The notes beneath the pieces were generated by a model. That model was not told where the DNA came from, searched no databases, and saw only the letters and a program-made list of their open reading frames with translations. Shown here in pieces: positions 374-27,156 of a stretch of 64,000 bases of DNA. Where the stretch lies: NCBI RefSeq assembly GCF_058153355.1, contig NZ_CM177019.1. One strand, given 5' to 3'. Position numbers and translations under genes: made by a program. The stretch's first letter is position 1; each line of letters opens with the position of its first letter.

Positions 374-379
374 TGACAA

Positions 380-6622: not shown

Positions 6623-6629
6623 AACCCTC

Positions 6630-7821: not shown

Positions 7822-7997
7822 CAGTGGCAGTAGTTCGCCATCGGCTGCTGTCTCAGCACATCAGGCCGCAGCTCACGACCGCAACCGGCACACAATACAG
7901 GCGGGTCATACGCCGCCGGGCGGGGAATATCACGGGTATCCCCCTGCCAGAGTTCAGCGAGCAGCAGCGCCACCGCCCGGTTCTGGTCTTCGTTCAT
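7803..7997 (-). CDS. Mu gp24-position small zinc-ribbon protein
   Basis: ORF track 64 aa with CAGC...CHWC cysteine pairs. Confidence 0.5.
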   Translation of the reverse strand: MNEDQNRAVALLLAELWQGDTRDIPRPAAYDPPVLCAGCGRELRPDVLRQQPMANYCHWCRGAE

Positions 7998-8295: not shown

Positions 8296-8542
8296 GATGT
8301 TCTGTCTCATCTTCCAGCCGCGCGGCACGATTTGCGGCACGGATAGCGGAAAATACCTGCATCGTCTGTTCCTGACTGTGTAACAACCATTCAGCAGTGT
8401 GGCGGGCCTGTTGCTCCGTCTGTAATTCACGGCGCAGCGTCTGGTTATCGTGGCGGGTGCTGTCCAGCCTGTGCCACAACACCCCGGACAGAACGGCGGT
8501 AAACACGGCTGCCAGCAGTAAACTTTTACTGGCGAAGGTCAT
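8156..8542 (-). CDS. Mu i-spanin (gp23)
   Basis: ORF track 128 aa with N-terminal TM helix (LLLAAVFTAVLSGVLW) and a charged coiled-coil; immediately downstream of the endolysin. Confidence 0.7.
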   Translation of the reverse strand: MTFASKSLLLAAVFTAVLSGVLWHRLDSTRHDNQTLRRELQTEQQARHTAEWLLHSQEQTMQVFSAIRAANRAARLEDETEHHDAKQKITTAITGDNCSTRPVPAVAADRLRELEKRTRAIGGDPARN

Positions 8543-9044
8543 CCGCCCCCCTGATATTCCAGATTGCCATTTCCACTTCGCGACGGTTCATCAGTCCTTT
8601 CCATTTATGGCCTGCGGCAAACACCCAGCGGGCCATCTGGTCACGTGCTCCGGCGTAATCACCGGCATTGAGTTTTTTCAGCAGCGTTGATTTACTGAAT
8701 GCGGTAACACCGGTGTTGAAAATAAACGTTGCCAGCGCCGTTTTCTGATATGGCGTCAGCGGCACCCTGACAAGACGATCGATTGCCGCATAAACCGGTT
8801 TTAAATCACTGTCGAGGAGAGCCATACACTCCGCATGGCTGTAACGGCGCATTTCAATATCCGGCCCGGTATGTCCCACACAGACCGTAAGCACACCGGC
8901 AATATCGCGGTAAGGCAGATAAGCGATATTTTCCAGATGGATCAGAGACTGACGGGTCATTTCCTGATAACCACCCACACCGCCACCGGCAATTGTTACA
9001 GCCAGCAGTGCGGCTTTCAGTTTTTTTGGGATCTCCGCCATCAT
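8526..9044 (-). CDS. lys: Mu endolysin Lys (gp22), SAR-type lysozyme
   Basis: ORF track 172 aa, MMAEIPKKLKAALLAVTIAGGGVGGYQEM..., N-terminal signal-anchor-release helix followed by a lysozyme domain. Confidence 0.9.
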   Translation of the reverse strand: MMAEIPKKLKAALLAVTIAGGGVGGYQEMTRQSLIHLENIAYLPYRDIAGVLTVCVGHTGPDIEMRRYSHAECMALLDSDLKPVYAAIDRLVRVPLTPYQKTALATFIFNTGVTAFSKSTLLKKLNAGDYAGARDQMARWVFAAGHKWKGLMNRREVEMAIWNIRGADDLRQ

Positions 9045-9135
9045 GCTTCCCTGAAAAAATGCGCTGATGGCAGTCTAAAAAATCAGGTGACAGGTGCGGG
9101 ATTATGGTGACAGGAAATAACCGGCAGGATGCCGG
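9045..9135 (-). promoter_or_regulatory. C-lys intergenic region, expected location of C-dependent late promoter Plys
   Basis: 91-bp gap between C stop and lys start; assignment from Mu biology. Confidence 0.4.
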
Positions 9136-9558
9136 TTATTTCTGGCTTTCAGGTGAGAACAGGTCAGGCTGATGACGTCGTGTATGCAGCTTTCTCTGGC
9201 GGGCAATAATCTGGTAGATCTGCGGCTGGGACAGGCGATACTGGCGACGCAGTTCTTCCATGTTACGACCATTGAACTGGCAGTAAAGCAAATCGTCGCG
9301 TAACGCGGTCAGGATCGTATCGCCGCAGGGGATGTAAAACTGCCGCCCGCCCAGAAAACAGGACAGGGCAACGGCCTGTTTACGGGCAAGCTCACGGGGA
9401 TTGCTGACGTTCTGGCGTTTCAGTTCGTTTTCCAGAACATCAATCAGATCAACCACCGAACGGGGCCAGCGTGATTCCAGTTCCGGGGCCGGGATGTTAT
9501 CAATATGTCCGATTAACTGGCGAATTGCCGGATCGTGTTCAAATAAATCATGCTGCAT
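9136..9558 (-). CDS. C: Mu late transcription activator C
   Basis: ORF track 140 aa, MQHDLFEHDPAIRQLIGHIDNIPAPELESRWPR...; shares its C-terminal fold with Mor (..FNGRN..EL..Y). Confidence 0.9.
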   Translation of the reverse strand: MQHDLFEHDPAIRQLIGHIDNIPAPELESRWPRSVVDLIDVLENELKRQNVSNPRELARKQAVALSCFLGGRQFYIPCGDTILTALRDDLLYCQFNGRNMEELRRQYRLSQPQIYQIIARQRKLHTRRHQPDLFSPESQK

Positions 9559-9670
9559 ATTTTCCCCCGGTTAACAGACAGAAAGATACACCACGGCACT
9601 GATGGTTATCAGAACCACAAGGGCAATCACTTTTATCGCACTCATCAGCGTGGACGGACCGAAACATTCA

Positions 9671-9901
9671 TCACTGAATTTTCTGTACACAATATTTTTC
9701 CTTATAACGTTGGCAGTGGTGAAGAATTTCCGGCATATCAACCGACTGCCAGCCTTTCATGTAATAACTTCCGTGGGTGCCATCATGACCGGTATAGTCG
9801 CGGGGCGAAGGCCGTGGCCCACCGGCGACACGGTGTAAAACCTCCTGACGCAGCCGCTCACGTCTGCCAAGATGAAAGGATGCATTCCAGCCTTTACCCA
9901 T
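9671..9901 (-). CDS. Hypothetical small protein in the mor-C interval (uncertain coding)
   Basis: ORF track 76 aa; region should also hold the middle promoter Pm; overlaps a plus-strand ORF. Confidence 0.3.
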   Translation of the reverse strand: MGKGWNASFHLGRRERLRQEVLHRVAGGPRPSPRDYTGHDGTHGSYYMKGWQSVDMPEILHHCQRYKEKYCVQKIQ

Positions 9902-9978
9902 GATGATTTCCCCCGGTACGGTTATTCATCACAGGATATTGAGGACGTAAAAAAAGCCGGATTAACCGGCTTTACTGT

Positions 9979-10368
9979 TTACAGTAGTGAGGGCTGGTAC
10001 TGGCGGTATTTCAGCCGTCGCATCCGGCGAATGGCCTTGTAAACCGTATTGAAAGTGACACCATAACGGGTGGTCAGTTCGCTGACGTTGCGACCGTTAA
10101 AATCATTCCAGATACGCAAATCCCGAATCAGCGAGTCCAGAACCTGACCGCGTGGAATGTAGACCTGACCGCCGCCCAGATGCTTACAGATAGCCACAAC
10201 AATCTCCAGTGAATGGGCAGGATCAACACCCAGCCGGGACAATTCCCCGCGCAGTAAATCGTTCAGCTCCGCCAGCAGTGCCGGAAAGCGTGACGTATCC
10301 TCGGCGGGATTGTCAAGATGTGCCAGGATGGTGTCATCCTGCAAATCACCAAATAAATCTTCCGTCAT
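9979..10368 (-). CDS. mor: Mu middle operon regulator Mor
   Basis: ORF track 129 aa, MTEDLFGDLQDDTILAHLDNPAEDTSRF... Confidence 0.9.
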   Translation of the reverse strand: MTEDLFGDLQDDTILAHLDNPAEDTSRFPALLAELNDLLRGELSRLGVDPAHSLEIVVAICKHLGGGQVYIPRGQVLDSLIRDLRIWNDFNGRNVSELTTRYGVTFNTVYKAIRRMRRLKYRQYQPSLL

Positions 10369-10916
10369 TGTGCCATCCTCCGTGTCTTTCTGGCATGGGC
10401 ATAAGCCGCCGTCATGGCATCATAGCCGCGCAGTTCACGCCCGGACGGACTGACCGGCAACGGAAGCTCGTGACGGGAAAAGGCTTCACGAATACAGCGG
10501 ATGTGCCACTGCTTGAGTGTTTCGAGGACTGTCAGCAGCGTGTCGCCATGACACCACGCCAGTGTGGAAACGCCCTGTCCGCCGTTGCGTTTCGCGGTCA
10601 GGCGCTGAACATATTTATCCAGCGCCACATCACCGCCATCGGTAATAAAACCGTCTTCTGCCATCTGCTGCCAGACTTTGTATACCTTCTCGCGGGGCGT
10701 GACATGCCCCTTAAAGCGGCGACGTGGATGTTTATTCTGCTTCTTAAAGCCGCGTTCTTTCATGGCATCAATCACCTGTTCCAGTTGCGTAACCGTCAGC
10801 TCGCGGCAACTGATTTTGCCCGTTTTCTGCATCAGAAAGGCGCGGTAAGTATCGTCGCCGAGTTGTAGCTCCCGACGGGCGACATGGATTAATTTAATCA
10901 GGGATGTGCGATTCAT
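10365..10916 (-). CDS. gemA: Mu GemA
   Basis: ORF track 183 aa, MNRTSLIKLIHVARRELQLGDDTYRAFL...; immediately upstream of mor with ATGA overlap. Confidence 0.8.
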   Translation of the reverse strand: MNRTSLIKLIHVARRELQLGDDTYRAFLMQKTGKISCRELTVTQLEQVIDAMKERGFKKQNKHPRRRFKGHVTPREKVYKVWQQMAEDGFITDGGDVALDKYVQRLTAKRNGGQGVSTLAWCHGDTLLTVLETLKQWHIRCIREAFSRHELPLPVSPSGRELRGYDAMTAAYAHARKTRRMAQ

Positions 10917-10985
10917 GATCGTACCTCCGGAAAGAGGCGGTGCTGCAACACCGCCTGAATTTACACATCAATCAGAGAGGATTTT

Positions 10986-11252
10986 ATGGAAAATAATGTA
11001 CAACCTTATGATGTTGCAGGTTATGCGATTGCATCAGCACTGGTGCGCCTTCTGGTGAAGAAGGCGATCATCACCGCAGAAGAGGGCCAAGCCATTTTCA
11101 GCTCTTCAGCAGAGATTTTAAAAGATGCGCCTGCAATAAGAACAAGCCGCCGCGAAAACATGCAACTGTCAAAGATCATGGAAGACATTATCAGTTCGTT
11201 AGACCCAGATGCTGACGGATCTCAAAAGCCTCAAACACATGAGCGTCAGTAA
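10986..11252 (+). CDS. Plus-strand hypothetical protein inside the Mu early operon, antisense to the early transcript
   Basis: ORF track 88 aa; ATG preceded by GAGAGG Shine-Dalgarno 7 nt upstream; 3' end overlaps the convergent ORF 11191..11493 by 62 nt. Confidence 0.35.
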   Translation: MENNVQPYDVAGYAIASALVRLLVKKAIITAEEGQAIFSSSAEILKDAPAIRTSRRENMQLSKIMEDIISSLDPDADGSQKPQTHERQ

Positions 11253-11493
11253 CAATATCCTGGTCTGATAACCCCAGCCTGCGGCGGATGTACTCCTCGC
11301 GGGCTGTTTCATTTTGCAGTGCCACTACTGTTTCCAGACGATTCATTTCGCGGTTGATAATGTCACGGACTTCTCTGGCGGTGAGATTATGCTTAATACC
11401 ATATTCAACGATAGCGCGAACACGTTCCAGCATCCCTTTTTCAGCCATGACGTTATCAATATTAAGGGGAGTAAATTTATCTTCATTGTTCAT
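11191..11493 (-). CDS. Mu semi-essential region hypothetical protein
   Basis: ORF track 100 aa; ATGA overlap with the upstream ORF. Confidence 0.5.
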   Translation of the reverse strand: MNNEDKFTPLNIDNVMAEKGMLERVRAIVEYGIKHNLTAREVRDIINREMNRLETVVALQNETAREEYIRRRLGLSDQDIVTDAHVFEAFEIRQHLGLTN

Positions 11494-11813
11494 TTTGCGG
11501 CCCTCAGAATAAATTCAGGATAAAATTTCAGACTCATTTGCCGTAACACATCCAGTGCAGCAACGGCTGCTGATTTATCGTTGCCATCAGCAATAGCGCG
11601 GAGATTTTCAATAATCCAGTGAGGACTCAGTGACTCAGCAACAATACCGAGTCGGTACGCCATGACCTCATCAATTGCACGGTTATAAGACGGGGCGTAT
11701 ACCGCCGCCACAAAGTTACCGATCACATCTTCAGGAAAACCCGCCGCCGTCAACAACGCTGTCAGTTCCTCGGATTTTGTAAATACGCCATTATTCATTC
11801 TGTTCACCTTCAC
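11490..11813 (-). CDS. Mu semi-essential region hypothetical protein
   Basis: ORF track 107 aa. Confidence 0.55.
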   Translation of the reverse strand: MKVNRMNNGVFTKSEELTALLTAAGFPEDVIGNFVAAVYAPSYNRAIDEVMAYRLGIVAESLSPHWIIENLRAIADGNDKSAAVAALDVLRQMSLKFYPEFILRAAK

Positions 11814-11982
11814 AATTCATGCACGCCGTGTCATCGCCCATATCGCAGTGGTTGCATTTCTGCCCGCCACAATGGGGACACTCTTTCAGATATTCAGGGG
11901 ATTCATTACCGCAGGTCGGGCATTCCTGTTTCACCGTGGTGAATTTCCCCAGCCACGAATACGATGTTTCATTGTTTTCCAT
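11791..11982 (-). CDS. Mu semi-essential region small zinc-ribbon protein
   Basis: Track ORF 11791..12054; internal start MENNETSYSW at 11982 has a GGAGG Shine-Dalgarno; CPTCG...CPHCGGQKCNHC...CMNC cysteine clusters. Confidence 0.5.
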   Translation of the reverse strand: MENNETSYSWLGKFTTVKQECPTCGNESPEYLKECPHCGGQKCNHCDMGDDTACMNCEGEQNE

Positions 11983-12520
11983 TGTTTGCCTCCGCCTGCT
12001 CCAGTGCCATAACTGGTGCGTCAGAACAGTCAAGAATGAGATAGCGCAGTACATGGTCGGTGATATTCCATGCGCTTGAGCTGCAAATAAAACGCCCCAG
12101 CCGGATATCGATATAAGCCATCACAAAACGGGGCATTCCCTGTTTGCACATCTCGTCATCCACTTCTGCAACGATGTGAACGGATTCACAGGTCAGTACG
12201 CCTGTCGCAAACTCTTTTGCCAGCGCGGGGATAGTATTACCTTCCACCCAGGGTAATGAGCGACGCCAGTTGCACCACACCGCATCATCAACGGCAGGCT
12301 GCTCAGTTGCGTTTCGTCTTACAGGCGGCGTCGGACGCGGGCGCGGAACGTCATAAAATCCGTTGCATTCGGTGAGCACTCCGGCATCAACCGCATCCCG
12401 CAGGAAATACACCATTGACGAGGGCAGCATCTTCATTTTTTCAGCCAGAACCCCGCAGGTCAGACGCCCGTAAGCCAGTAATAATGTGCTGACCCCATTC
12501 AGAACTTTTGCATCAATCAC
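11969..12520 (-). CDS. Mu semi-essential region hypothetical protein
   Basis: ORF track 183 aa. Confidence 0.55.
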   Translation of the reverse strand: MIDAKVLNGVSTLLLAYGRLTCGVLAEKMKMLPSSMVYFLRDAVDAGVLTECNGFYDVPRPRPTPPVRRNATEQPAVDDAVWCNWRRSLPWVEGNTIPALAKEFATGVLTCESVHIVAEVDDEMCKQGMPRFVMAYIDIRLGRFICSSSAWNITDHVLRYLILDCSDAPVMALEQAEANNGKQ

Positions 12521-12523
12521 CGG

Positions 12524-13078
12524 TTATTCCTCCGTCAGTGCCACAAATTCAGAATGTTTAATACGCTGGCATTCGGAGGGAACTGGTCCTTTAACCTCAC
12601 CGTCCAGAAGGCGCACCTCAAACAAAATGCCGAATCCATCACGGGTGTGGTGCATCTCCCAGAGCGATTTGAAATCCCACATATTGGGTATGACATCAAC
12701 CCCAAGTTCATTGCACAGCCAGCCCGGAAAATCCGGGTATTTACCGAGCTGATTTTCATAGCCCCGGATAAGCTCCGCGTGTTCCCGGCCTGCTGGTGTT
12801 GTCATATCCGGCATCGCTGCCCATAACTGAATATCACCAATAAAAAGTGTCCTTGATTTAATCTCCCATCCTTCCGGTGGTAAACGGTTAAACCAGACAC
12901 GCGTAACCCTCTCAGGCCCTTTGTCACCAGACAAAAACACACCGCTTGCTTTCACTGATTGCTGTAATGACGCAATAATCTCACCACGCTTAACAGAAAC
13001 CTCTTTCAGCCAGCGAATCGTATAACCGTTAGCGGCTGCGTCACTCAGTTTAAAATAAGCACATGCTTTCATTTTCAT
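12524..13078 (-). CDS. Mu semi-essential region hypothetical protein
   Basis: ORF track 184 aa. Confidence 0.55.
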   Translation of the reverse strand: MKMKACAYFKLSDAAANGYTIRWLKEVSVKRGEIIASLQQSVKASGVFLSGDKGPERVTRVWFNRLPPEGWEIKSRTLFIGDIQLWAAMPDMTTPAGREHAELIRGYENQLGKYPDFPGWLCNELGVDVIPNMWDFKSLWEMHHTRDGFGILFEVRLLDGEVKGPVPSECQRIKHSEFVALTEE

Positions 13079-13169
13079 TCTCTCCGGTTCTGATTAAGGC
13101 GCGAGTCGTCCCCTGACGCATCGCGCCATAATTAAACGAATGTGAATTAATTAAATATTAATGGTGGTA

Positions 13170-13694
13170 TTAAATACCGGCTTCCTGTTCAAACGGAATA
13201 ATGGAAAAATCTTCAATTCCCGATTTAACTGTAATTCCGGCAACACCTGCGACCGCTTTCGGTTCCAGTAAAATCGCTTCCTTGTTGATTTCCTGCTTCG
13301 TGCGAATAAAGCGTTGCAGGCCAAGACGCTCCAGCGTTTCCATCACTGCATCCATACCACGAATACTTACTGATGGTGGACGGACCCGCCACGATACATC
13401 ACCGGTGACAAGATTTGCCGTTTTCACTTTGCCGCCGTTTGTCAGTTCGTCGCGGTTCGCTTCACACCATCCCTGAACGCCTTTTGAAAGGGTTTCAATA
13501 TCGGTTTTAATCGGTGCAATCCGGGCTGCAAATTTCTCCGTAATTTCCGCGATGGCATCATTCATTTCCGTTTCCAGACGTGATGCTTCGCGCTGTAAGT
13601 CCCCGATGCGTTTAATATCGGTAATCACCGCATCGCGGTTTTGTGGCACATAAGCCGCTGCGGCACTTTTGATACGTTTTGCTGGTTTAGCCAT
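13170..13694 (-). CDS. gam: Mu Gam, DNA-end-binding host nuclease inhibitor (Ku-like)
   Basis: ORF track 174 aa, MAKPAKRIKSAAAAYVPQNRDAVITDIKRIGDLQREASRLETEMNDAIAEI... Confidence 0.9.
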   Translation of the reverse strand: MAKPAKRIKSAAAAYVPQNRDAVITDIKRIGDLQREASRLETEMNDAIAEITEKFAARIAPIKTDIETLSKGVQGWCEANRDELTNGGKVKTANLVTGDVSWRVRPPSVSIRGMDAVMETLERLGLQRFIRTKQEINKEAILLEPKAVAGVAGITVKSGIEDFSIIPFEQEAGI

Positions 13695-13713
13695 AAATTA
13701 AAGCTCCTGTTAA

Positions 13714-14013
13714 TTAATATCCGCTGTATACAATGCTGGATACAGCTCGATTGCTTAATTCCATCTTTCGGGCAATGACATGAATATCCAGCCCTTCTTT
13801 ATAAAGTTCACGACATAAATATTTGTCGTGTTCACTGATTCGGTATACACACAATGATATTCCGTGCCTTCTGGCATGTGCCCGGAGGGCGGTTGTGGCG
13901 ACTTTCAGTTTTTCCGCCATTTCTTCAACGGTCATTTTCCCGACGTTGGCTTCGATAAATTCCCGGTCTTCGCGTGACCAGCGCTTACGATTACACTTCA
14001 TGTCAGCCACCAT
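13714..14013 (-). CDS. Mu early region hypothetical protein with a putative helix-turn-helix
   Basis: ORF track 99 aa; segment MTVEEMAEKLKVATTALRAHARRHGISL resembles an HTH. Confidence 0.55.
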   Translation of the reverse strand: MVADMKCNRKRWSREDREFIEANVGKMTVEEMAEKLKVATTALRAHARRHGISLCVYRISEHDKYLCRELYKEGLDIHVIARKMELSNRAVSSIVYSGY

Positions 14014-14433
14014 TCAGTACAGCAGAGGCTCGCGCAGTGATGCCGGAATATGCCGCAGCGATAACTGAACCGCTTTCAGGGCAAGCGAGGAATAACAGCA
14101 GCGCGCCCGGCCTTTTGCCATTAACCGGTAATCGCGCCAGATACGCTGCCACATTTCACGGGCTTCAGGGTCTGATGCGCAGATGTATTCCCGGTCCATG
14201 ACGTACTCCCATAAATCCACGTTGAACGCACCGCCAAATGCAATGGCGCGGGATATGCTTTCGCCGCAATAACGCGCACAGATGCTGTAATGGTCGAAAG
14301 CAATCAGGTAAGTCTTTTCACCACAATCATCAACTTTCCGGGCGTAAATAAATCCGCGTAATTCACCACCGTTGTTATTGCGTCCCTGAATTCGGATTAA
14401 TGCCTGAATTTCATTTCGGATTTTGACGTTCAT
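14014..14433 (-). CDS. Mu early region hypothetical protein
   Basis: ORF track 139 aa. Confidence 0.55.
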   Translation of the reverse strand: MNVKIRNEIQALIRIQGRNNNGGELRGFIYARKVDDCGEKTYLIAFDHYSICARYCGESISRAIAFGGAFNVDLWEYVMDREYICASDPEAREMWQRIWRDYRLMAKGRARCCYSSLALKAVQLSLRHIPASLREPLLY

Positions 14434-14453
14434 TGTCAGCGCTCCTTTGCGAA

Positions 14454-14723
14454 TTAATGTTTAACCGCATTCACCGGATGTGGTACTAAATCACATTCAG
14501 CCTCCATACCCACTTTCTTCATAGTGGTCAGCATCTCATCTTTGGCCTTTTTAATAATTTCAGGAGCCATAGTCAGGACGATATTTGCCAGTAAATCATG
14601 AGGCCCGGTATTTTCCGTTGGCGAGATATCTGCAAGACATGCTTTTGCATCCAGAACTTCTCTGCGCCCATTGCAACCTTCACAACTTTCCAGCCATGTA
14701 AACTCAAAGATAACTTTTGCCAT
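14454..14723 (-). CDS. Mu early region hypothetical protein
   Basis: ORF track 89 aa, cysteine-containing (CEGCNGRRE). Confidence 0.5.
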   Translation of the reverse strand: MAKVIFEFTWLESCEGCNGRREVLDAKACLADISPTENTGPHDLLANIVLTMAPEIIKKAKDEMLTTMKKVGMEAECDLVPHPVNAVKH

Positions 14724-14734
14724 TTTGTTTCCCC

Positions 14735-14989
14735 TTATTGATTCTGAATAACTGCGCTGGCTTTTACCTTCGCGCCTTTTACCTGCTTAAAGAAAACCGC
14801 GCTGCACCACGGACAACATGCAAAGGAGTCCCATACTTCATTTTCTGGTGAGCATTGCGTCATAATTTGCTCTTTGCACTTGGGGCAATTAAATGCAGTC
14901 AGAGCCACATTGTTATTCTGTACCCGTTTAACCCATTCAATATATTTTCCAGCTTTAGTACACATCGTTATCTCCAGATAATCTGGCAA
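14735..14989 (-). CDS. Mu early region small zinc-finger-like protein
   Basis: ORF track 84 aa with CPKC and CCPWC motifs. Confidence 0.5.
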
Positions 14990-15195
14990 CCATTAAGACG
15001 GGCCGTCCATACAGAACGGGCCACCCCGGACTTATGCTCCATAATTCTGACCGCGTTTTTTACCAGTTCCACCGGTGGGTAAGTGATTTCAAGAATCGGA
15101 CGCGCCACGCCGAGATATGATTCATTTACATGACTCCCGCGCGCCTGTAACCAGTTCTGCGCATCCGTTGCCATTTTTATATTTCGGGCCATCAT
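14968..15195 (-). CDS. kil: Mu Kil-position protein (first gene after B)
   Basis: ORF track 75 aa immediately downstream of B; assignment by position and size. Confidence 0.5.
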
Positions 15196-15210
15196 AATTT
15201 CTTCTCCTTC

Positions 15211-16149
15211 TTAATTACGCAGCAGCGTTAAAATATCAACGTCCAGGTCTAATTCACGGAAAGCCTGACGCAGATAATCTTCGTTAACACGCTCACCTTT
15301 ACCATGAGCCGTCATGGCGGCAAGGCGAAGCGAATGATTCAGAATGCGAAGCGCACCGGGTTTCTGTGCAATTTGCTGTAACAACTCCAGTTCTTTTTCG
15401 CCGTTAATATGCCAGGCATCCGCAATAGCTTTTACATCGGCTTTTTTGGTTTTATTAATTGCAGTGGGCTTTGCAATACGGGAAAACAGACGGGCAAATT
15501 CAACCGTTCTGTTGCCCCCCGTCATATTTGAATAAACGCGGTGATTGCCCATCAGCACAAGGCCAGTGCGGGTTGATTCCTGTAACAGGCGGAGTTCTTC
15601 CAGAGCTTCAGCACCAAGATGATCAGCTTCGTCGATGATAACCAGCCCCTGTGTACCTTCAAGGCGGCGTCGCAGGGCGCGGGAGAGCGGCCCTTTACGG
15701 CGTGGTGCGTCATTCATTCCCAGCTCAAACGCCAGTTCAGTAAGACATTCCAGAACGCTGGCACAGGATGGCGTAATGGTGATCATCCAGACATTGTTAT
15801 TGGTGCGGCGATATTCACGGGCCGCTTCGGTTTTGCCCACACCAGGATTGCCACATACAACAGCAATACTTTCAGTCAGGCTGGCAAAACGCATACTTGT
15901 CCAGATTTGTTTTACCGTCTGCGTTTCCACAAAGCGGGGCGGTTCCGGTAGTTCTGCGACTGCATGATATTTTTCCAACCAGCGTTGCAGTATTTGTGCA
16001 ACACGTTCGTTATCCCCGTTGTACTTATCATTGATAAAACTACTGATAGTCCCGGTAGAAAGTCCGCTCTCAAGGGCAATTTGTTTAAAGGTGGTTTCTT
16101 CATTTTCTACAAGGGTGCGCAGTCCTGCGCGAATATCTGAAATATTCAT
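15211..16149 (-). CDS. B: Mu transposition ATPase / target DNA activator MuB
   Basis: ORF track 312 aa, MNISDIRAGLRTLVENEETTFKQIALESGLS..., Walker A GNPGVGKTE. Confidence 0.95.
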   Translation of the reverse strand: MNISDIRAGLRTLVENEETTFKQIALESGLSTGTISSFINDKYNGDNERVAQILQRWLEKYHAVAELPEPPRFVETQTVKQIWTSMRFASLTESIAVVCGNPGVGKTEAAREYRRTNNNVWMITITPSCASVLECLTELAFELGMNDAPRRKGPLSRALRRRLEGTQGLVIIDEADHLGAEALEELRLLQESTRTGLVLMGNHRVYSNMTGGNRTVEFARLFSRIAKPTAINKTKKADVKAIADAWHINGEKELELLQQIAQKPGALRILNHSLRLAAMTAHGKGERVNEDYLRQAFRELDLDVDILTLLRN

Positions 16150-16187
16150 CTGAATAACCTCGTAATTAAATTTTGTTAAAACGTTAA

Positions 16188-18179
16188 TTAAATGACTTTT
16201 TTACGTCTGTTCTGTTCCAGAATATCCAGCGAATGATTCAGATATTCATCACGCTCAGTTTCGTATTCATCATCACGCTCCTGATTCTTCACCCGTTCCG
16301 TATTACCGGAAGGCCGGAAAATGCTTACAATTCGTGATTCTGGTGCTTCAGGTTCGGCTATCTGCGGCAGCAGCTCTGCCACTTCCAGTGCATCCATTTG
16401 TTTCTGTGCCTTAATCGCTGCTTTCGTCGCAGATTTCAGTTGTTTCTGGCGGCGGCGATATTCACGGCCTGCCGCAGCATCATTAAACGCAACAGGTGCC
16501 AGACATTCCGCTTCACAGATAAACCGACCGTCCAGGGTGTAGCAATAAACCGTGCTGTGTAACTGCTGTGGATCAAATCTGACCACAACTTTTTTCACTC
16601 CGGCATTCATTAACGCCATGTTGTAATAAACGTTTTTCGCGCCTTTAAGGGAGCCGCCAACTTTAAGCGCGAACTCGCCTTTACGTGAAACGTTCACCGC
16701 CTCGGCAGGCAGTAACAGCATCCGTTTTTGCTCTTCGGTAGGCTTACGCACAATCGTTCTGGCGTATTCACGCTCAAAAACGTCATCAAACGAAAGTTTG
16801 CCCCCGCACATTTCTGTTTCTCGGCCTGTTCTGGCATTGAACATCGCCACACCTTCGGCAAGGGTTTTCAGAAACAGCTCTGCATCAACAGCGCGGTCGC
16901 CATAGTTATCAGGTTTTGCCTGCGGATTAGGCCCCGTATATGCGCCAGCCAGTGCCGGATGTTTATCAACGTATTCCTCAAGGCCACCAACACCGAAAGC
17001 ACGTTCTACAGGTTTTGCCTGGCCCCAGCCTTTACCGGCAACAACGCTTGTCCAGTGCATGGTCGCCCCCATCAGTAAAAACAGCCCCTTTGGATCGTCC
17101 TCTTTCACCTTAAAGCGGTAGCGATTGGGCGCGCCCCCCGTCAGCCATTTATTCGCAGCACCACGGGTGTTATCAATGGTGATGTGAAAATCCTCCGGGA
17201 TGCCGTAGCGTGTCACTACATCCATGAACGAGAGGCGAATTGAATCGATGTTCTCGCTAACATCGCAGCGCCAGCCCAGAATTTTTCGGGTTTTCACATC
17301 CTGCCAGAACCATGTTTTCGGGCGGATCACATCACCGTTAAACCAGCGTACAAAGACGTTATGCAGATAACCGTCGCCGTTGATCCACTGCATGGCGTCC
17401 AGGTGTTCCACAGTTCGTTGCTGTGCCGGTATCAGATGCATCAGTGCATGTTCACCTTCACGGCAGGCAACAACCATTGCCCCGTCCAGTTGCTGAATCC
17501 GGCGAAATGCCGTGGCTCGGGAGGGAATACTCCAGCCATGCTCGCGGGCTGCCAGTTCCAGACGCTCATAACATTTGCGGAAGGCGGGTTTTTCCGGTCG
17601 CAGATAATCTGCAATCAGAAACTGCCAGGCATCCTCGTCAAATTCACTTTTGTGAACATTGCGACGGGATGCTCCACGTCCATCAACAAGTGCAGCCGCC
17701 CAGTCAGGCTTCGCAAACTTCTGTACCTGGTAATACTTGTCCCGCAAAGTGGATGCGCTGACCTGGTAATGCCCTGCAACGGTCGCAAAAGCCGTTTTCG
17801 TTGAAATCCCCTGGTTCAGCATTTCGTCTGCAGCCTGAACCGCAGGCAACCATTTTTCAGCAAGTCTGCGCTGGGAATCGCTGGCGTTATCCCATTTGCT
17901 CCACAGTGCCTCACGATCATAATCATGGGCTTCCAGCGTGGGGCGGGCGATTTCAAAATACCCCTGACTTGTTTCAATCTCTCCTTGTCTCAGCAATAAC
18001 GCCGCTTTCGCTTCAACAGGTAAAGAGTTCGCATTGTATTCAATTGCTTTACCACCTTTGACACCTGCTCTAGTGCGGTTTTGCCATCCTTGCTTTTTAG
18101 CAACATAAATCACACCAGCCGATGTTTTCGGCAAACCAGGAAGATTCGCACACTCTTTCGGTGATACCCAAAGTTCCAT
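16188..18179 (-). CDS. A: Mu transposase MuA
   Basis: Track ORF 666 aa; canonical 663-aa MuA begins at [23 protein letters not shown] (ATG at 18179). Confidence 0.95.
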
Positions 18180-18180
18180 G

Positions 18181-18408
18181 TTATTCACCTGCTTGATATC
18201 GGCTAGGCCAGATTACTTCCGGTTTAGTTTCTAAGGCGTTAGCAATAATCTGCTCACCCTTTGGCCAGTGTCGTTCTAGCGCATTAGCTAATGTAGTTGG
18301 CGCATAACCGAACTGCCGGGAAAGAGCTGATAAAGAGAGCTTTCTTTTCTTAAGTCCCGCAATCACATCCGCTCGATGCCAATCACGGGCCTTTTCGTTG
18401 GAACACAT
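18181..18408 (-). CDS. ner: Mu Ner, early-transcription negative regulator
   Basis: ORF track 75 aa, [36 protein letters not shown]... Confidence 0.9.
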
Positions 18409-18577
18409 TTAAAAACCCTCCTAAGTTTTGTAATCTATAAAGTTAGCAATTTAACTAAGTGTAAAAACTTAGCTAGCTTGCTAAAAAGATAATTACTGAA
18501 AAGCTTTTTGTAAAGTTACTTTTTAGTAAATTTCTTTGATTACTGATTAATGCATTGATAAATAAGGGGTTTAAATT
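18409..18577. promoter_or_regulatory. Mu early operator/promoter region (O1-O3, divergent Pe and Pc, Ner and IHF sites, transposition enhancer)
   Basis: AT-rich divergent intergenic region between c and ner with repeated CTTTT/AAGT-type repressor half-sites. Confidence 0.7.
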
Positions 18578-19168
18578 TTGAAAAGTAACTTTATAGAAAA
18601 AGACGATACTGAAAAGTCAATTTGGTGTTCGCCGCAAGAAATTATGGCTGCTGATGGTATGCCTGGATCTGTTGCTGGTGTTCACTATCGAGCAAATGTT
18701 CAAGGCTGGACGAAGCGAAAAAAGGAAGGTGTCAAGGGGGGGAAAGCTGTTGAATACGATGTGATGTCTATGCCCACCAAAGAACGAGAGCAAGTTATTG
18801 CGCACTTGGGGTTATCCACACCGGATACTGGTGTTCAAGCCAATGAGAAACAGGATTCTTCGGAACTGATAAACAAATTAACCACAACCTTAATCAATAT
18901 GATTGAAGAGCTGGAACCAGATGAAGCACGCAAGGCACTGAAACTTTTAAGTAAAGGGGGGTTGTTGGCGTTAATGCCTCTTGTATTTAATGAACAGAAA
19001 CTTTACAGCTTTATAGGATTTTCACAGCAAAGTATTCAGACGTTGATGATGTTAGATGCATTACCTGAAGAAAAACGCAAAGAGATTTTGTCAAAGTATG
19101 GGATTCATGAACAGGAAAGTGTTGTAGTACCTTCACAGGAACCACAGGAGGTAAAAAAAGCCGTATAA
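18578..19168 (+). CDS. c: Mu repressor c
   Basis: ORF track 196 aa, MKSNFIEKDDTEKSIWCSPQEIMAADGMPGSVAGVHYRANVQGW... Confidence 0.95.
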   Translation: MKSNFIEKDDTEKSIWCSPQEIMAADGMPGSVAGVHYRANVQGWTKRKKEGVKGGKAVEYDVMSMPTKEREQVIAHLGLSTPDTGVQANEKQDSSELINKLTTTLINMIEELEPDEARKALKLLSKGGLLALMPLVFNEQKLYSFIGFSQQSIQTLMMLDALPEEKRKEILSKYGIHEQESVVVPSQEPQEVKKAV

Positions 19169-19319
19169 CAACCATGAACCAGCTAAAACATACTTCACCT
19201 CACATAATCACACATGTAACATACCTAAACGGCATAAGCTGATTTGTGATATGAGTCATTTGGTGACAGCCTGGTTGTTATCGGTTTTGAACGTTTTTTG
19301 AAGCTGTTATTGAAATGAT

Positions 19320-19506
19320 TTGCAGTGTTTTTGTTTTTCGTATTTTGAATGAAACAAAAGCAATTTTTTACTATCTTTCGCGTTTCATTGATTAACGACT
19401 AAAATTTGCGCTACAGGCTTGCAAGCCCCACCAAATCTAATCCCATCAGATCCCGAATAATCCAATGTCCTCCCGGTTTTTTTCGTACTTCAAGTGAATC
19501 AATACA
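19320..19506. repeat. Mu left end (attL) with transposase binding sites L1-L3; terminus at 19506
   Basis: Sequence ...cccggtttttttcgtacttcaagtgaatcaataca is the reverse complement of the canonical Mu left terminus. Confidence 0.85.
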
Positions 19507-19540: not shown

Positions 19541-20443
19541 ATGCAAATCACCAACATGCATTGCAGTGGACAAACCGTTTCACTTGCCGCGGGGGATTAT
19601 CACGCGACTATCGTGACGGTTGGTGCTGGTCTGGCTGAATTAACTTTTCAGGGTTGTCATTTAGTCATCCCGCACAAACCCGAAGAGATGCCGCTGGCGC
19701 ATCTGGGTAAAGTGCTTATTCCGTGGCCGAACCGGATCGCCAACGGCTGTTACCGCTATCAGGGACAGGAATATCAGTTACCCATTAATGAACATAGTTC
19801 AAAAGCCGCTATTCACGGGCTGCTTGCCTGGCGAGACTGGCAAATTAGCGAATTAACCGCCACCAGCGTTACCCTGACAGCTTTTCTACCGCCCAGTTAC
19901 GGCTATCCGTTTATGCTGGCTTCGCAGGTTGTTTATTCGCTCAATGCTCGCACGGGCCTTTCCGTTGAGATCGCAAGCCAGAATATTGGTACTGTGACCG
20001 CACCTTATGGTGTGGGTATTCATCCTTATTTAACCTGCAACTTAACATCTGTTGATGACTATCTTTTCCAGCTTCCGGCAGAACAGGTTTATGCCGTCGA
20101 TGAGCACGCAAATCCGACAACGCTTCACCACGTTGATGAGCTGAATTTAAATTTCACGCGGGCGACAAAAATAGCCGCGACAAAAATAGACCATACCTTT
20201 AAAACCGCTAATGATCTGTGGGAAATGACCATTACCCATCCACAGCAGGCGCTGTCGGTGAGTCTTTGTTCCGATCAACCCTGGGTGCAGGTTTATAGCG
20301 GCGAAAAATTACAGCGTCAGGGACTGGCAGTTGAACCTATGAGTTGCCCGCCTAACGCCTTTAATTCAGGTATCGACTTATTATTACTGGAACCAGGAAA
20401 AACGCACCGCCTGTTTTTTAATATTCACGGGCAGCACAATTAA
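19541..20443 (+). CDS. yihR: Aldose 1-epimerase family protein (sulfoquinovose mutarotase YihR-like)
   Basis: ORF track 19406..20443; the Mu end at 19506 lies inside that ORF, so the ATG at 19541 with AAAGG Shine-Dalgarno is used; GIHPYL epimerase-type motif; synteny with yihQPO. Confidence 0.8.
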   Translation: MQITNMHCSGQTVSLAAGDYHATIVTVGAGLAELTFQGCHLVIPHKPEEMPLAHLGKVLIPWPNRIANGCYRYQGQEYQLPINEHSSKAAIHGLLAWRDWQISELTATSVTLTAFLPPSYGYPFMLASQVVYSLNARTGLSVEIASQNIGTVTAPYGVGIHPYLTCNLTSVDDYLFQLPAEQVYAVDEHANPTTLHHVDELNLNFTRATKIAATKIDHTFKTANDLWEMTITHPQQALSVSLCSDQPWVQVYSGEKLQRQGLAVEPMSCPPNAFNSGIDLLLLEPGKTHRLFFNIHGQHN

Positions 20444-20503
20444 TTTTATTAAGAAAAGAACGAGATTATTGTTTAGGGTTGTATTTACACAACAGGAAAT
20501 ATT

Positions 20504-21379
20504 ATGGACTTTTTTACGTTATTTTCGCCAGATGGGGCCATGCTGGAAACAAACGTGGTATGTATCGTTATCGCGTTGATGTTTCTTTATACCTTTGTGG
20601 GGATATGCGCGGGATTTGGTGGCGGTTTAACCACCATGCCACTCGTCACGTTAATGCTCCCCGTAAAAATGGCAACACCACTTTCGGTAATTGTCGGCAC
20701 CGCAACCGCCTTGTACGCCACCTGGCTATCACGCAAAGAAACGGATTGGCGCTCGGCAATGGTGCTGATTATTTTCTCATTTTTGGGAATACCCGTCGGT
20801 TTATATGCGCTGTCATATTTACCCGACCATTTTATGAAAGTGGGCTTAGGTGGATTTCTTATCCTCTACTCCTTTTACAGCATGTTTATTCCTCGCTTGC
20901 CGATTTATGACCGTAACTGGATCGCCGCACCTATCGGCGCAGTAGCTGGCGCATTAGGCGCGGCGTTCTCAACCAACGGGCCGCCGATGGTTATCTACGG
21001 GATGCTGCGTAACTTAGGTCCGGCGGCATTTCGCGGCACTCTGAACGCTTTCTTCACCGCAAACAACATCGCGGTGATCGGCGGGCTGGCGACCAGCGGA
21101 ATTTTGACTGTTTCTATCTTTAAACTGGTGCTGTTTTGTATTCCCACCATGATCCTCGGTTCACTGATTGGACAATATGTGCATAAACGCATTTCGGTCA
21201 AAGTGTTTCGTGTGATGGTCTTTTTATTGTTGATTGCCTCCGGTTCTATGTTGATAAAAGGTGCGTTGGGAATTCCCGCCGCTGCCGCACTTCTGCCTCC
21301 GTTTACCTTGTTAGTTATACTGCAACTGGCATTTGGTAAAAAAGTGGCGGCAATCCGCCGGGCTGAAGAAAGTAAATAA
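20504..21379 (+). CDS. TauE/SafE (DUF81) family anion/sulfite exporter-like membrane protein
   Basis: ORF track 291 aa, multi-TM with duplicated glycine-rich motifs (GICAGFGGGLTTMPL; GAVAGALGAAFSTNGPP). Confidence 0.75.
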   Translation: MDFFTLFSPDGAMLETNVVCIVIALMFLYTFVGICAGFGGGLTTMPLVTLMLPVKMATPLSVIVGTATALYATWLSRKETDWRSAMVLIIFSFLGIPVGLYALSYLPDHFMKVGLGGFLILYSFYSMFIPRLPIYDRNWIAAPIGAVAGALGAAFSTNGPPMVIYGMLRNLGPAAFRGTLNAFFTANNIAVIGGLATSGILTVSIFKLVLFCIPTMILGSLIGQYVHKRISVKVFRVMVFLLLIASGSMLIKGALGIPAAAALLPPFTLLVILQLAFGKKVAAIRRAEESK

Positions 21380-21485: not shown

Positions 21486-23522
21486 ATGGATACGCCACGC
21501 CCACAGTTATTAGATTTTCAATTTCATCAGAATAACGACAGTTTTACTCTACGTTTTCAAGACCGTCTTATTTTAATCCATAGCAAAGATAATCCTTGCT
21601 TATCGATTGGCTCAGGTATAGCGGATATCGATATGTTCCGCGGTAATTTCAGCATTAAAGATAAATTGCAGGAGAAGATTGCGCTCACCGACGCCATCGT
21701 CAGCCAGTCACCGGATGGCTGGTTAATCCATTTCAGCCGTGGTTCTGACATTAGCGCCACGCTGCGTATCTCTGCCGACGATCAGGGCCGTTTATTGCTG
21801 GAACTACAAAACGACAACCATCACCACAACCGCATCTGGCTGCGTCTTGCCGCACAACCAGAGGACCATATCTACGGCTGCGGCGAACAATTCTCCTACT
21901 TTGATCTGCGCGGCAAACCGTTCCCGCTATGGACCAGTGAACAAGGCGTTGGTCGCAACAAACAAACCTATGTCACCTGGCAGGCCGACTGCAAAGAGAA
22001 CGCGGGCGGCGACTATTACTGGACTTTCTTCCCGCAGCCTACTTTTGTCAGCACGCAGAAGTATTACTGCCATGTCGATAACAGCTGCTATATGAACTTC
22101 GACTTCAGTGCTCCGGAATACCATGAACTGGCATTGTGGGAAGACAATGCCACCCTGCGTTTTGAATGTGCGGACACATACATCTCCCTGTTGGAAAAAT
22201 TAACCGCCCTGCTGGGACGTCAGCCAGAACTGCCCGACTGGATTTATGACGGGGTAACGCTAGGTATTCAGGGCGGGACAGATGTATGCCAGAAGAAACT
22301 GGATACCATGCGTAACGCGGGTGTGAAGGTCAACGGCATCTGGGCGCAGGACTGGTCCGGGATCCGCATGACCTCGTTTGGCAAACGTGTGATGTGGAAC
22401 TGGAAGTGGAACAGTGAAAACTACCCACAGTTAGATTCCCGCATCAAGCAATGGAAAGAAGAAGGCGTGCAGTTCCTCGCCTACATCAACCCGTATGTTG
22501 CCAGCGATAAGGACCTCTGCGCCGAGGCGGCTTCACATGGCTATCTGGCAAAAGATGCCTCTGGCGGTGACTATCTGGTGGAATTTGGGGAGTTTTACGG
22601 CGGCGTTGTCGATTTGACCAATCCTGAAGCATATTCCTGGTTCAAAGAAGTCATCAAGAAAAACATGATCGAATTGGGCTGCGGCGGCTGGATGGCAGAT
22701 TTTGGCGAATACTTGCCGACCGATACGTATCTGCATAACGGCGTTAGCGCCGAAATTATGCATAACGCCTGGCCCGCACTGTGGGCGAAATGTAACTACG
22801 AAGCCCTTGAAGAAACGGGCAAGCTTGGCGAGATCCTTTTCTTTATGCGCGCCGGTTCTACCGGTAGCCAGAAATACTCCACCATGATGTGGGCGGGCGA
22901 CCAGAACGTCGACTGGAGTCTGGACGATGGCCTGGCGTCGGTTGTTCCGGCGGCGCTCTCGCTGGCGATGACCGGGCATGGCCTGCATCACAGTGACATT
23001 GGCGGTTACACCACCCTGTTTGAGATGAAGCGCAGCAAAGAGCTGCTGCTGCGCTGGTGCGATTTCAGCGCCTTCACGCCGATGATGCGCACCCACGAAG
23101 GTAACCGTCCTGGCGACAACTGGCAGTTTGACGGCGACGCGGAAACCATCGCCCATTTTGCCCGTATGACCACCGTCTTCACCACCCTGAAACCTTACCT
23201 CAAAGACGCCGTCGCGCTGAATGCGAAGTCCGGCCTGCCGGTTATGCGCCCGCTGTTCCTGCATTACGAAGACGACGCGCAGACCTACACCCTGAAATAT
23301 CAGTACCTGTTAGGCCGCGACATTCTGGTCGCTCCGGTGCATGAACAAGGCCGTAGCGACTGGACGCTCTATCTGCCGGAGGATAACTGGGTCCACGCCT
23401 GGACAGGTGAAGCGTTCCGGGGCGGGGAAGTTACCGTTAATGCGCCCATCGGTAAACCGCCGGTCTTTTATCGCGCCGATAGCGAATGGGCGGCACTGTT
23501 CGCGTCGTTAAAAAGCATCTAA
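21486..23522 (+). CDS. yihQ: Sulfoquinovosidase (GH31 alpha-glucosidase family)
   Basis: ORF track 678 aa; GH31-like sequence; synteny. Confidence 0.9.
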   Translation: MDTPRPQLLDFQFHQNNDSFTLRFQDRLILIHSKDNPCLSIGSGIADIDMFRGNFSIKDKLQEKIALTDAIVSQSPDGWLIHFSRGSDISATLRISADDQGRLLLELQNDNHHHNRIWLRLAAQPEDHIYGCGEQFSYFDLRGKPFPLWTSEQGVGRNKQTYVTWQADCKENAGGDYYWTFFPQPTFVSTQKYYCHVDNSCYMNFDFSAPEYHELALWEDNATLRFECADTYISLLEKLTALLGRQPELPDWIYDGVTLGIQGGTDVCQKKLDTMRNAGVKVNGIWAQDWSGIRMTSFGKRVMWNWKWNSENYPQLDSRIKQWKEEGVQFLAYINPYVASDKDLCAEAASHGYLAKDASGGDYLVEFGEFYGGVVDLTNPEAYSWFKEVIKKNMIELGCGGWMADFGEYLPTDTYLHNGVSAEIMHNAWPALWAKCNYEALEETGKLGEILFFMRAGSTGSQKYSTMMWAGDQNVDWSLDDGLASVVPAALSLAMTGHGLHHSDIGGYTTLFEMKRSKELLLRWCDFSAFTPMMRTHEGNRPGDNWQFDGDAETIAHFARMTTVFTTLKPYLKDAVALNAKSGLPVMRPLFLHYEDDAQTYTLKYQYLLGRDILVAPVHEQGRSDWTLYLPEDNWVHAWTGEAFRGGEVTVNAPIGKPPVFYRADSEWAALFASLKSI

Positions 23523-24993: not shown

Positions 24994-26397
24994 ATGTCTG
25001 ACCATAATCCACTGACATTAAAACTGAATCTGCGGGAAAAAATCGCTTATGGCATGGGCGACGTCGGTTCGAATTTAATGCTTAGCATCGGCACTCTGTA
25101 TCTCCTCAAATTTTATACCGATGAATTAGGGATGCCTGCTTACTATGGCGGGATTATCTTTCTGGTGGCGAAATTCTTTACCGCGTTTACCGATATGCTC
25201 ACCGGATTTTTACTCGACTCGCGGAAAAATATTGGGCCTAAAGGCAAATTTCGTCCCTTTATTTTATATGCAGCGGTTCCGGCGGCGTTAATTGCAACGC
25301 TCCAGTTTATCGCCACCACTTTTAGTTTGCCGATTAAAACGACGATTGCCACCGCGCTGTTTATGATGTTTGGACTTTCATACAGTCTGATGAACTGCTC
25401 GTATGGCGCGATGATCCCAGCAATTACCAAAAACCCCAATGAGCGCGCGCAGCTTGCGGCTTACCGCCAGGGTGGTGCAACCATAGGGCTATTGATTTGT
25501 ACCGTAGCATTTATTCCATTGCAGTCGCTTTTTTCTGACTCCACTGTCGGTTATGCCTGCGCGGCACTGATGTTCTCCATTGGTGGCTTTATTTTTATGA
25601 TGCTGTGCTACAGAGGCGTCAAAGAGCATTATGTGGACACGACGCCAACCGGACATAAAGCCAGTATTCTCAAATCTTTTTGCGCGATATTTCGTAATCC
25701 GCCATTGCTGGTTTTATGCATTGCTAACCTGTGTACCCTGGCGGCATTTAATATCAAACTGGCAATTCAGGTCTATTACACCCAGTATGTGCTGAATGAT
25801 ATTAATTTATTGTCGTGGATGGGATTCTTCAGTATGGGATGCATCCTCATCGGCGTATTGCTGGTGCCATTAACTGTAAAATATTTTGGTAAAAAACAGG
25901 TTTATTTAGCTGGCATGGTGCTGTGGGCGGTGGGGGATATCCTGAATTATTTCTGGGGCAGTAACTCTTTCACTTTCGTCATGTTCTCTTGTGTCGCCTT
26001 TTTTGGTACGGCCTTTGTAAACAGCCTGAACTGGGCGCTGGTACCGGATACCGTAGATTATGGTGAATGGAAAACAGGTATACGTGCCGAAGGTTCTGTT
26101 TATACCGGTTATACCTTCTTTCGTAAAATTTCAGCCGCACTTGCTGGCTTCTTGCCAGGCATTATGCTGACGCAAATCGGTTATGTTCCCAACATCGCGC
26201 AAAGCGATGCAACATTACAGGGTTTGCGTCAGCTCATTTTTATTTGGCCTTGTGCGCTGGCGATAATTGCTGCATTGACGATGGGATTCTTTTACACGCT
26301 CAATGAAAAACGTTTTGCGATGATTATTGAGGAAGTTAACCAACGCAAAAATAAAGAAATTAAGACAGAAGAAAAAACGGCTTCCGTAACGTTATAA
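24994..26397 (+). CDS. yihO: GPH-family sulfoquinovose transporter YihO
   Basis: Track ORF 24988..26397; ATG at 24994 after AAGGAG. Confidence 0.85.
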   Translation: MSDHNPLTLKLNLREKIAYGMGDVGSNLMLSIGTLYLLKFYTDELGMPAYYGGIIFLVAKFFTAFTDMLTGFLLDSRKNIGPKGKFRPFILYAAVPAALIATLQFIATTFSLPIKTTIATALFMMFGLSYSLMNCSYGAMIPAITKNPNERAQLAAYRQGGATIGLLICTVAFIPLQSLFSDSTVGYACAALMFSIGGFIFMMLCYRGVKEHYVDTTPTGHKASILKSFCAIFRNPPLLVLCIANLCTLAAFNIKLAIQVYYTQYVLNDINLLSWMGFFSMGCILIGVLLVPLTVKYFGKKQVYLAGMVLWAVGDILNYFWGSNSFTFVMFSCVAFFGTAFVNSLNWALVPDTVDYGEWKTGIRAEGSVYTGYTFFRKISAALAGFLPGIMLTQIGYVPNIAQSDATLQGLRQLIFIWPCALAIIAALTMGFFYTLNEKRFAMIIEEVNQRKNKEIKTEEKTASVTL

Positions 26398-26463: not shown

Positions 26464-27156
26464 ATGAAAAAGTTAAATGCAATAATTTTATTATCCTCTC
26501 TGACTTCCGCATCGGTATTCGCAGGCGCATACGTCGAAAACAGGGAGGCATATAATCTCGCCTCCGATCAGGGCGAGGTTATGCTACGTGTGGGTTATAA
26601 CTTCGATATGGGCGCGGGTATCATGTTAACCAATACCTACAACTTTCAGCGAGAAGATGAACTAAAACATGGATATAACGAAATCGAAGGTTGGTATCCT
26701 TTATTTAAACCAACCGATAAATTAACCATCCAGCCCGGTGGCTTAATTAATGATAAGAGCGCCGGTTCCGGTGGTGCTGTTTATCTGGATGTTAACTACA
26801 AATTTGCCCCGTGGTTTAACCTGACGGTACGCAACCGTTTTAACCATAATAACTACAGCACAACCGATTTAAACGGTGATCTGGATAATAATGACAGCTA
26901 CGAGATTGGTAACTACTGGAACTTTATTATTACCGATAAGTTCTCATATACCTTTGAACCGCATTATTTTTATAATATTAATGATTTCAACAGCAGCAAT
27001 GGCACCAAGCATCACTGGGAAATCACTAACACCTTCCGTTACCGAATTAATGAGCACTGGCTGCCCTATATTGAATTGCGCTGGTTAGACCGCAACGTCG
27101 AGCCGTACCACCGCGAGCAAAACCAGATCCGTATCGGGACGAAGTATTTCTTCTGA
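26464..27156 (+). CDS. ompL: Outer membrane porin OmpL
   Basis: Track ORF 26428..27156; signal peptide MKKLNAIILLSSLTSASVFA; C-terminal YFF beta-barrel signature. Confidence 0.85.
   Translation: MKKLNAIILLSSLTSASVFAGAYVENREAYNLASDQGEVMLRVGYNFDMGAGIMLTNTYNFQREDELKHGYNEIEGWYPLFKPTDKLTIQPGGLINDKSAGSGGAVYLDVNYKFAPWFNLTVRNRFNHNNYSTTDLNGDLDNNDSYEIGNYWNFIITDKFSYTFEPHYFYNINDFNSSNGTKHHWEITNTFRYRINEHWLPYIELRWLDRNVEPYHREQNQIRIGTKYFF

Follow-up and report, generated by a model that had tools for sequence, protein, structure and literature searches.

Within the window, the 64,000-nucleotide stretch of NCBI RefSeq assembly GCF_058153355.1 (contig NZ_CM177019.1) that was analysed, part of a sulfoquinovose gene cluster lies beside the left half of a phage Mu prophage. 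The features are listed below by window position.

1..19506, minus strand: phage Mu prophage, left half, 97.5% identical to Mu positions 1-19520
15211-16149, minus strand: MuB
16188-18188, minus strand: MuA
18578-19168, plus strand: Mu repressor
19541..20443, plus strand: yihR, sulfoquinovose mutarotase / aldose-1-epimerase, directly 5' of the tauE-like gene
20444..20503, plus strand: yihR-tauE spacer, 60 bp
20504..21379, plus strand: tauE-like gene, 291 aa
21380..21485, plus strand: tauE-yihQ spacer, 106 bp
21486..23522, plus strand: yihQ, sulfoquinovosidase, intact, 678 aa
23568..24953, plus strand: yihP, MFS transporter, presumed in the literature to export 2,3-dihydroxypropanesulfonate (DHPS)
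24994..26397, plus strand: yihO, MFS transporter, sulfoquinovose importer
26464..27156, plus strand: ompL, porin, the end of the cluster

The initial annotation had reported an extra 291-aa reading frame between yihR and yihQ, set off by spacers of 60 and 106 bp, and the coordinates of the three genes (20443/20504..21379/21486) agreed with this description. The reading frame has an ATG start, 291 codons and no internal stops, and its identification as a tauE-like gene draws on the ORF and its translation, Pfam, the RefSeq annotation of orthologous loci, dN/dS and an AlphaFold2 (AF2) model. Alignment with annotated E. coli loci placed the true start of yihR at 19541, and the window YihR was 96.7% identical in amino acid sequence to that of O157. 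The ORF list and alignment gave yihO and ompL; yihP was placed from the ORF list through the length and spacing of its annotated ortholog, and its region aligned over the full length at 97% to an annotated E. coli locus.

The sequence AGGA, a putative ribosome-binding site, lies in the 60-bp spacer ~8 nt 5' of the tauE-like ATG, and the first ~30 bp of this spacer were weakly alignable to the K-12 spacer. A consensus scan found no promoter-like or terminator-like match in the yihR-tauE spacer, nor did either of the two spacers from yihR to yihQ give a promoter or terminator hit on the coding strand. Given these absent matches, the tauE-like gene is probably co-transcribed with yihR and yihQ. 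The last ~60 bp of the 106-bp spacer are common to K-12 and include a perfect palindrome, CCTGTAATAACAGG, at 21431-21444, ~45 bp 5' of yihQ. The palindrome is kept in the tauE-carrying Escherichia and in K-12, with an internal 6-bp duplication in the MZ1211 copy, and alignment found no conservation of it in Salmonella. A role for the palindrome as a repeated operator was considered and dropped (one exact copy in the cluster, and four loose matches versus 1.1 expected); it was also dropped as evidence of regulation, since Salmonella does not conserve it.

The Mu left end (5'-TGTATTGATTCACTTGAAGTACG...) meets host DNA at 19506/19507, 34 bp 5' of the yihR ATG, and the junction falls inside the yihS-yihR spacer when read against the uninterrupted locus of strain Z0117EC0005. 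The prophage sets yihR-tauE-yihQPO-ompL apart from yihS, yihT, yihU, yihV and csqR, none of which falls within the window. Matches to Mu-like prophages of E. coli ended at 19506-19513, and in the 5426 complete E. coli genomes none of the best of these matches continued into yihR. The 5-bp target duplication of Mu is expected to be CCGGG, the other prophage end being outside the window. A sigma-70 promoter has been reported in the K-12 yihS-yihR spacer (PMC5816610). The Mu repressor gene points at yihR, and read-through into yihR-tauE-yihQ is conceivable. It is this prophage that is the real strain-specific remodelling of the cluster.

Beyond the cluster, 3' of ompL, positions 27337-32778 hold genes of the STM4015, STM4014, STM4013, STM4012 and STM4011 families, which include two radical-SAM proteins and one hydrolase. 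These genes are followed by a 231-aa Cof-type phosphatase that profiles match in two pieces, with a gap of ~20 positions. The corresponding site of K-12 is occupied by yihN, yihM and yihL. At one Salmonella locus, ORFs of 282 aa, 341 aa (ATP-grasp) and the sulfatase family stand directly 3' of ompL, and these are likely the same island as that of the window.

The initial annotation had assigned the 291-aa protein to the TauE/SafE family, and a Pfam check bore this out: TauE (PF01925) matched with an E-value of 2.4e-35, residues 23-248 corresponding to model positions 2-235 of 237. Judged by this match, the protein is a membrane transporter of the TSUP family (TauE/SafE, DUF81; TC 2.A.102). It was matched by no NCBIfam model, equivalogs included. 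A search of the whole library of 1.84 billion representatives returned 5651 relatives at E <= 0.001. Compared with the O157:H7 allele, the gene had a dN of 0.009, a dS of 0.22 and a dN/dS of 0.042, and was no less constrained than yihR (0.074) and yihQ (0.065); by this measure, it is under strong purifying selection.

The AF2 model, built from an 87-sequence alignment (pLDDT 95.5, pTM 0.91), was all-helical, with 11 helices. A pattern of long-short-long-long-long helices occurs twice, over residues 16-128 (16-36, 40-49, 54-75, 82-105 and 108-128) and 138-255 (138-155, 159-168, 173-198, 203-227 and 232-255), and an extra C-terminal helix spans 259-290. Shlykov et al. are said to have described TSUP proteins in 2012 as having ~8 transmembrane segments in two similar halves. 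The duplicated glycine-rich motifs proposed by the initial annotation were present, at the helix breaks between 16-36 and 40-49 and between 138-155 and 159-168: among 87 diverse family members G37 and G39 were invariant and G159 and P160 at least 90% conserved, the second motif being a conserved N158-G159-P160. The duplication itself thus stood as motifs and as a predicted helix repeat, but the sequence similarity of the N-terminal to the C-terminal half was marginal (hhalign E 0.04 over 26 columns only; BLAST E 1.3). No sequence relative of TauE was found in the PDB, and no solved TSUP structure was found. Because a Foldseek search with the model returned only BacA/UppP, a phosphatase (E 0.02, TM-score 0.46-0.51), the predicted structure is uninformative on substrate.

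A megablast search with the gene alone found it in 1295 of 5426 complete E. coli genomes (~24%), always on the chromosome and at a median of one and a maximum of two places per genome. The carriers include O157:H7 and span varied hosts and serotypes; in all of them PGAP labels the product 'sulfite exporter TauE/SafE family protein', and the exact TauE protein sequence of the window occurs on at least 1000 public contigs. The initial annotation had taken the gene as a peculiarity of the strain that pointed to strain-level remodelling of the pathway, a view that does not hold for a gene of this frequency that is already annotated. The yih cluster is regarded in the literature as a core feature of E. 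coli; it was detectable by megablast in 4038 of the 5426 genomes, about one third of which keep the tauE-like gene, and the other 1388 (26%) had no megablast match to any part of it. The 90%-identity protein cluster that contains TauE also lists E. coli proteins of 299-300 aa named 'aldose-1-epimerase', which looks like a clustering or naming oddity and not biology.

Alignment with K-12 MG1655 supported the statement in the initial annotation that yihR is there followed directly by yihQ: the two genes are separated by a 198-bp spacer, and no tauE-like gene is present. The same comparison extended to other genera did not support the reading that the gene had been inserted. In Salmonella enterica the cluster reads csqR-yihV / yihU-T-S-R-tauE-yihQ-P-O-ompL, occupies the chromosomal site that it has in E. 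coli, and is bordered by yihX, yihY and dtd at one end and by typA at the opposite end; the S. enterica tauE ortholog is 86% identical. E. whittamii has the Salmonella order, with tauE between yihR and yihQ, and in Klebsiella quasipneumoniae and Enterobacteriaceae RIT691 the gene stands one position further, after yihQ. Among Escherichia, the context comparison covered E. coli and E. whittamii. When E. coli O157 is compared with Salmonella, the amino acid identity of TauE (87.3%) is that of its neighbours (YihU 87.6%, YihT 88.0%, YihQ 87.2%, YihP 85.7% and YihO 85.2%).

The tauE-less allele was compared in three strains, K-12, BL21 and MZ1211, which have one common replacement spacer of 198-204 bp. 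No tauE remnant was detected in the middle ~110 bp of the K-12 spacer (local score 17, compared with 17.8 +/- 2.1 for shuffled sequences), and similarity to the tauE-carrying allele returns ~60 bp before the yihQ start codon. Since no remnant was detected, the K-12 spacer is a replacement allele and not a clean deletion scar, and its simplest reading is as a single old replacement allele. A recent, strain-specific insertion that remodelled the pathway would agree with the absence of the gene from K-12 and with a K-12 spacer that has neither tauE remnant nor visible deletion scar. It is nevertheless extremely improbable, given the identical position of the gene in Salmonella and E. whittamii, a divergence equal to that of the flanking genes, its presence in so many complete E. 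coli genomes, and flanking sequence in which no mobile-element features were seen beside the gene. Salmonella synteny, neighbour-like TauE divergence and the one common replacement spacer together indicate that the K-12 state is the derived one, the gene having been lost there and not gained in the window strain. The simplest reading is that the eleven-gene order is ancestral to Escherichia and Salmonella.

Several other differences among alleles were recorded. The window yih region was just 92-97% identical to any locus compared. Between K-12 and O157:H7, the yihS-yihR spacer contains indels (82% identity), yihR is 91-95% and the 3' part of ompL 76-82% identical, and the remaining cluster is 96-100% identical. 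BL21 has a 5'-truncated yihQ pseudogene adjoining the K-12-type spacer, in strain BE2-5 an IS1-bounded deletion runs from tauE codon 30 to yihN, and yihT of strain Z0117EC0005 contains an internal stop.

Sulfoquinovose clusters were the context of the TauE ortholog in all 11 taxa examined, in line with the functional coherence with sulfoquinovose catabolism suggested by the initial annotation, and the orthologs across these clusters are 76-86% identical. Five of the contexts are sulfo-EMP (E. coli, E. whittamii, Salmonella, Enterobacteriaceae RIT691 and Klebsiella). The other six are sulfo-ED-like (Hafnia, Edwardsiella, Leminorella, Vibrio owensii, Kluyvera and Mixta), with orthologs 76-85% identical; sulfo-ED clusters in Hafnia, Leminorella and Vibrio have been mentioned previously (PMC7491151). 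The sulfo-ED-like operon encodes an IlvD/Edd dehydratase, an HpcH/HpaI aldolase, an aldose epimerase, an SGL lactonase, a YihU-like NAD reductase and an SDR dehydrogenase and ends with the TauE ortholog, alongside a divergent SSF symporter. This symporter, of an uptake family, and TauE are the only transporters of these clusters. The enzymes common to the two cluster types are an epimerase-like protein and the YihU-like reductase only, and DHPS is the expected product of both types because both encode this reductase. The clusters examined contained no sulfo-lyase or monooxygenase gene. The K. quasipneumoniae cluster encodes TauE and one MFS protein, 74% identical to YihO and 68% to YihP, with no second MFS protein.

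The TauE clade forms a single 50%-identity cluster (510 bits in the search of 1.84 billion representatives). The next full-length relatives scored 143 bits, were at most 38% identical and have ~240 aa; members of the clade carry ~15 extra N-terminal residues and the additional C-terminal helix. The two nearest TSUP relatives outside the clade (P0127 and P0131) are in unrelated contexts and gave no functional lead. In Kluyvera ascorbata the TauE-ending sulfo-ED-like cluster adjoins typA-glnA-glnLG-hemN, the neighbourhood where E. coli and Salmonella have their sulfo-EMP cluster. This suggests that one sulfoquinovose cluster may have been replaced by another at the typA site.

The founding members of PF01925, Cupriavidus necator TauE and Neptuniibacter SafE, have the family and the glycine-rich helix-break motifs in common with the window TauE. 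Their proposed substrates are sulfite and sulfoacetate, from the degradation of C2-sulfonates, and Weinitschke and co-workers reportedly put forward sulfite for the C. necator protein in 2007. The pathway of the window, in contrast, is not known to make sulfite or sulfoacetate. Closer parallels are SftE of the sulfo-TAL clusters (Bacillus, Clostridium, Eubacterium), the TauE permease of Arthrobacter AK04 and the TauE-like protein of the sulfo-ED cluster of Pseudomonas putida SQ1. These are of the same Pfam family, are likewise encoded inside a sulfoquinovose catabolic cluster, and have been proposed to export a C3-sulfonate end product (PMC7491151, PMC8873060), as predicted here for the window TauE; the latter differs in belonging to a tight clade seen in Enterobacterales and Vibrio. 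A part for TauE-type transporters in sulfoglycolysis clusters is an established, though still putative, idea, and thousands of genomes already carry an annotation of the gene. In PMC8940949, earlier reports (Denger 2014; Felux 2015) are credited with showing TauE transporters in sulfo-EMP and sulfo-ED clusters.

The cluster itself has been described as having ten genes, with a 'syntenic' operon in Salmonella (PMC8006165, PMC10991401). In this K-12 ten-gene cluster (ompL, yihO-yihW), yihR, yihQ, yihP, yihO and ompL are orthologous to and co-ordered with those of the window; the window, O157:H7, E. whittamii and Salmonella have an eleventh gene, and the window cluster is cut by the Mu prophage between yihS and yihR. 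A literature search found no paper on this TauE gene specifically in E. coli or Salmonella, nor any published transport assay, expression data or mutant of the protein. The TauE-like gene is a known, annotated and unstudied member of the cluster, to which the present comparison adds the polarity of the change (loss in K-12), a distinct clade and occurrence in two pathway types.

On balance, we consider it probable that TauE exports the sulfonated C3 end product DHPS, as an ancestral TSUP member of the sulfo-EMP cluster; we infer both the substrate and the direction of transport. TauE would be a secondary transporter of the TSUP family and the vertically inherited eleventh gene of the cluster. 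The YihU reductase makes DHPS, the end product of the pathway, and TauE would move it outward in parallel with or in place of YihP, an MFS protein. Overlap between the two carriers would have made tauE losable in one E. coli lineage (the K-12/BL21-type allele) with the pathway kept; loss of the K-12 type would be tolerated because YihP and TauE are, as proposed, redundant.

The sulfo-EMP pathway leaves the C-S bond intact, and its end product, DHPS, has to be released from the cell (PMC6278857, PMC8006165); YihP is described as no more than 'most likely' the protein that exports it (PMC6278857). Proteins of the TauE type are the predicted exporters of sulfolactate or DHPS in sulfo-TAL, actinobacterial sulfo-EMP and sulfo-ED clusters (PMC7491151, PMC8873060). 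YihP, the candidate of the literature for the step proposed here for TauE, is encoded two genes 3' of tauE, belongs to MFS_2 and is unrelated to TauE in fold and family; it is present in K-12, where TauE is absent, and missing from the TauE-carrying Klebsiella cluster, a complementarity seen in one Klebsiella genome. Export of DHPS fits best because one of the two transporters of the sulfo-ED-like clusters is an uptake-type SSF symporter, because Klebsiella combines TauE with a single YihO-like MFS protein, and because K-12 has YihP without TauE, the exporter role of YihP being presumed only. According to PMC6278857, which cites Denger 2014 on this point, K-12 grows on sulfoquinovose and excretes DHPS without TauE; TauE is therefore not required, and is at most accessory or redundant.

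The main rival is that TauE works inward, importing sulfoquinovose, sulfoquinovosyl glycerol or another sulfonate and so adding uptake capacity. The TSUP family is named after an uptake permease, which counts for import, and includes the uptake system TsaS; tauE also adjoins yihQ, whose enzyme acts on imported glycosides. A review moreover assigns the TSUP/TauE proteins of both cluster types, sulfo-EMP and sulfo-ED, to the uptake of sulfoquinovose or its glycosides (PMC8940949). We regard import as unlikely, since a dedicated carrier of the uptake type is already part of every cluster, either YihO, which is essential for growth of K-12 on sulfoquinovose (PMC6278857), or the SSF symporter. If TauE imported, the sulfo-ED-like clusters would have two importers and no exporter, and the Klebsiella cluster that carries TauE is missing the YihP type of carrier and not the YihO type.

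The initial annotation had offered sulfite or a sulfonate as the exported compound. Sulfite has in its favour the PGAP product name and the founding C. necator TauE, described as a sulfite exporter in work cited in 10.1101/2023.08.01.551581. That name is a family label with no NCBIfam equivalog match behind it, the C-S bond is left uncleaved in a pathway ending in DHPS, with no sulfo-lyase or monooxygenase among the genes of the clusters examined, and TauE is distant from its nearest relatives outside the sulfoquinovose-linked clade. Sulfite export is accordingly very unlikely, and we infer that export of a sulfonated product is the better reading. A substrate unrelated to sulfonates, or some other membrane role carried along in the cluster, has marginally more to recommend it and is still quite improbable. 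Most TSUP substrates are unknown (PMC8873060), and the family has no solved fold representative, its closest structural match being BacA/UppP; against this, across Enterobacterales and Vibrio the clade has stayed, at 76-86% identity, with two sulfoquinovose clusters that differ in their enzymes, and so lasting a tie would be difficult to account for unless the protein had a part in their common chemistry.

The textbook sulfoquinovose cluster of K-12 is thus missing a gene that is kept by Salmonella, O157:H7 and about one third of the cluster-carrying E. coli, and the view that 'most likely YihP' exports DHPS rests on a strain without the other candidate. A bolder form of DHPS export, which we hold only tentatively and at somewhat less than an even chance, is that this TSUP clade with nine long helices, and not YihP, would be the native DHPS exporter of enterobacterial sulfoglycolysis, common to the sulfo-EMP clusters and a reductive sulfo-ED-like cluster, the ten-gene cluster of K-12 being a reduced variant with a back-up carrier. 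Sulfite-respiring gut bacteria use DHPS from Enterobacterales to produce H2S, so the DHPS exporter has some ecological interest. If TauE is that exporter, its gene would be the first handle on DHPS release by gut Enterobacterales, the step that feeds these H2S producers.
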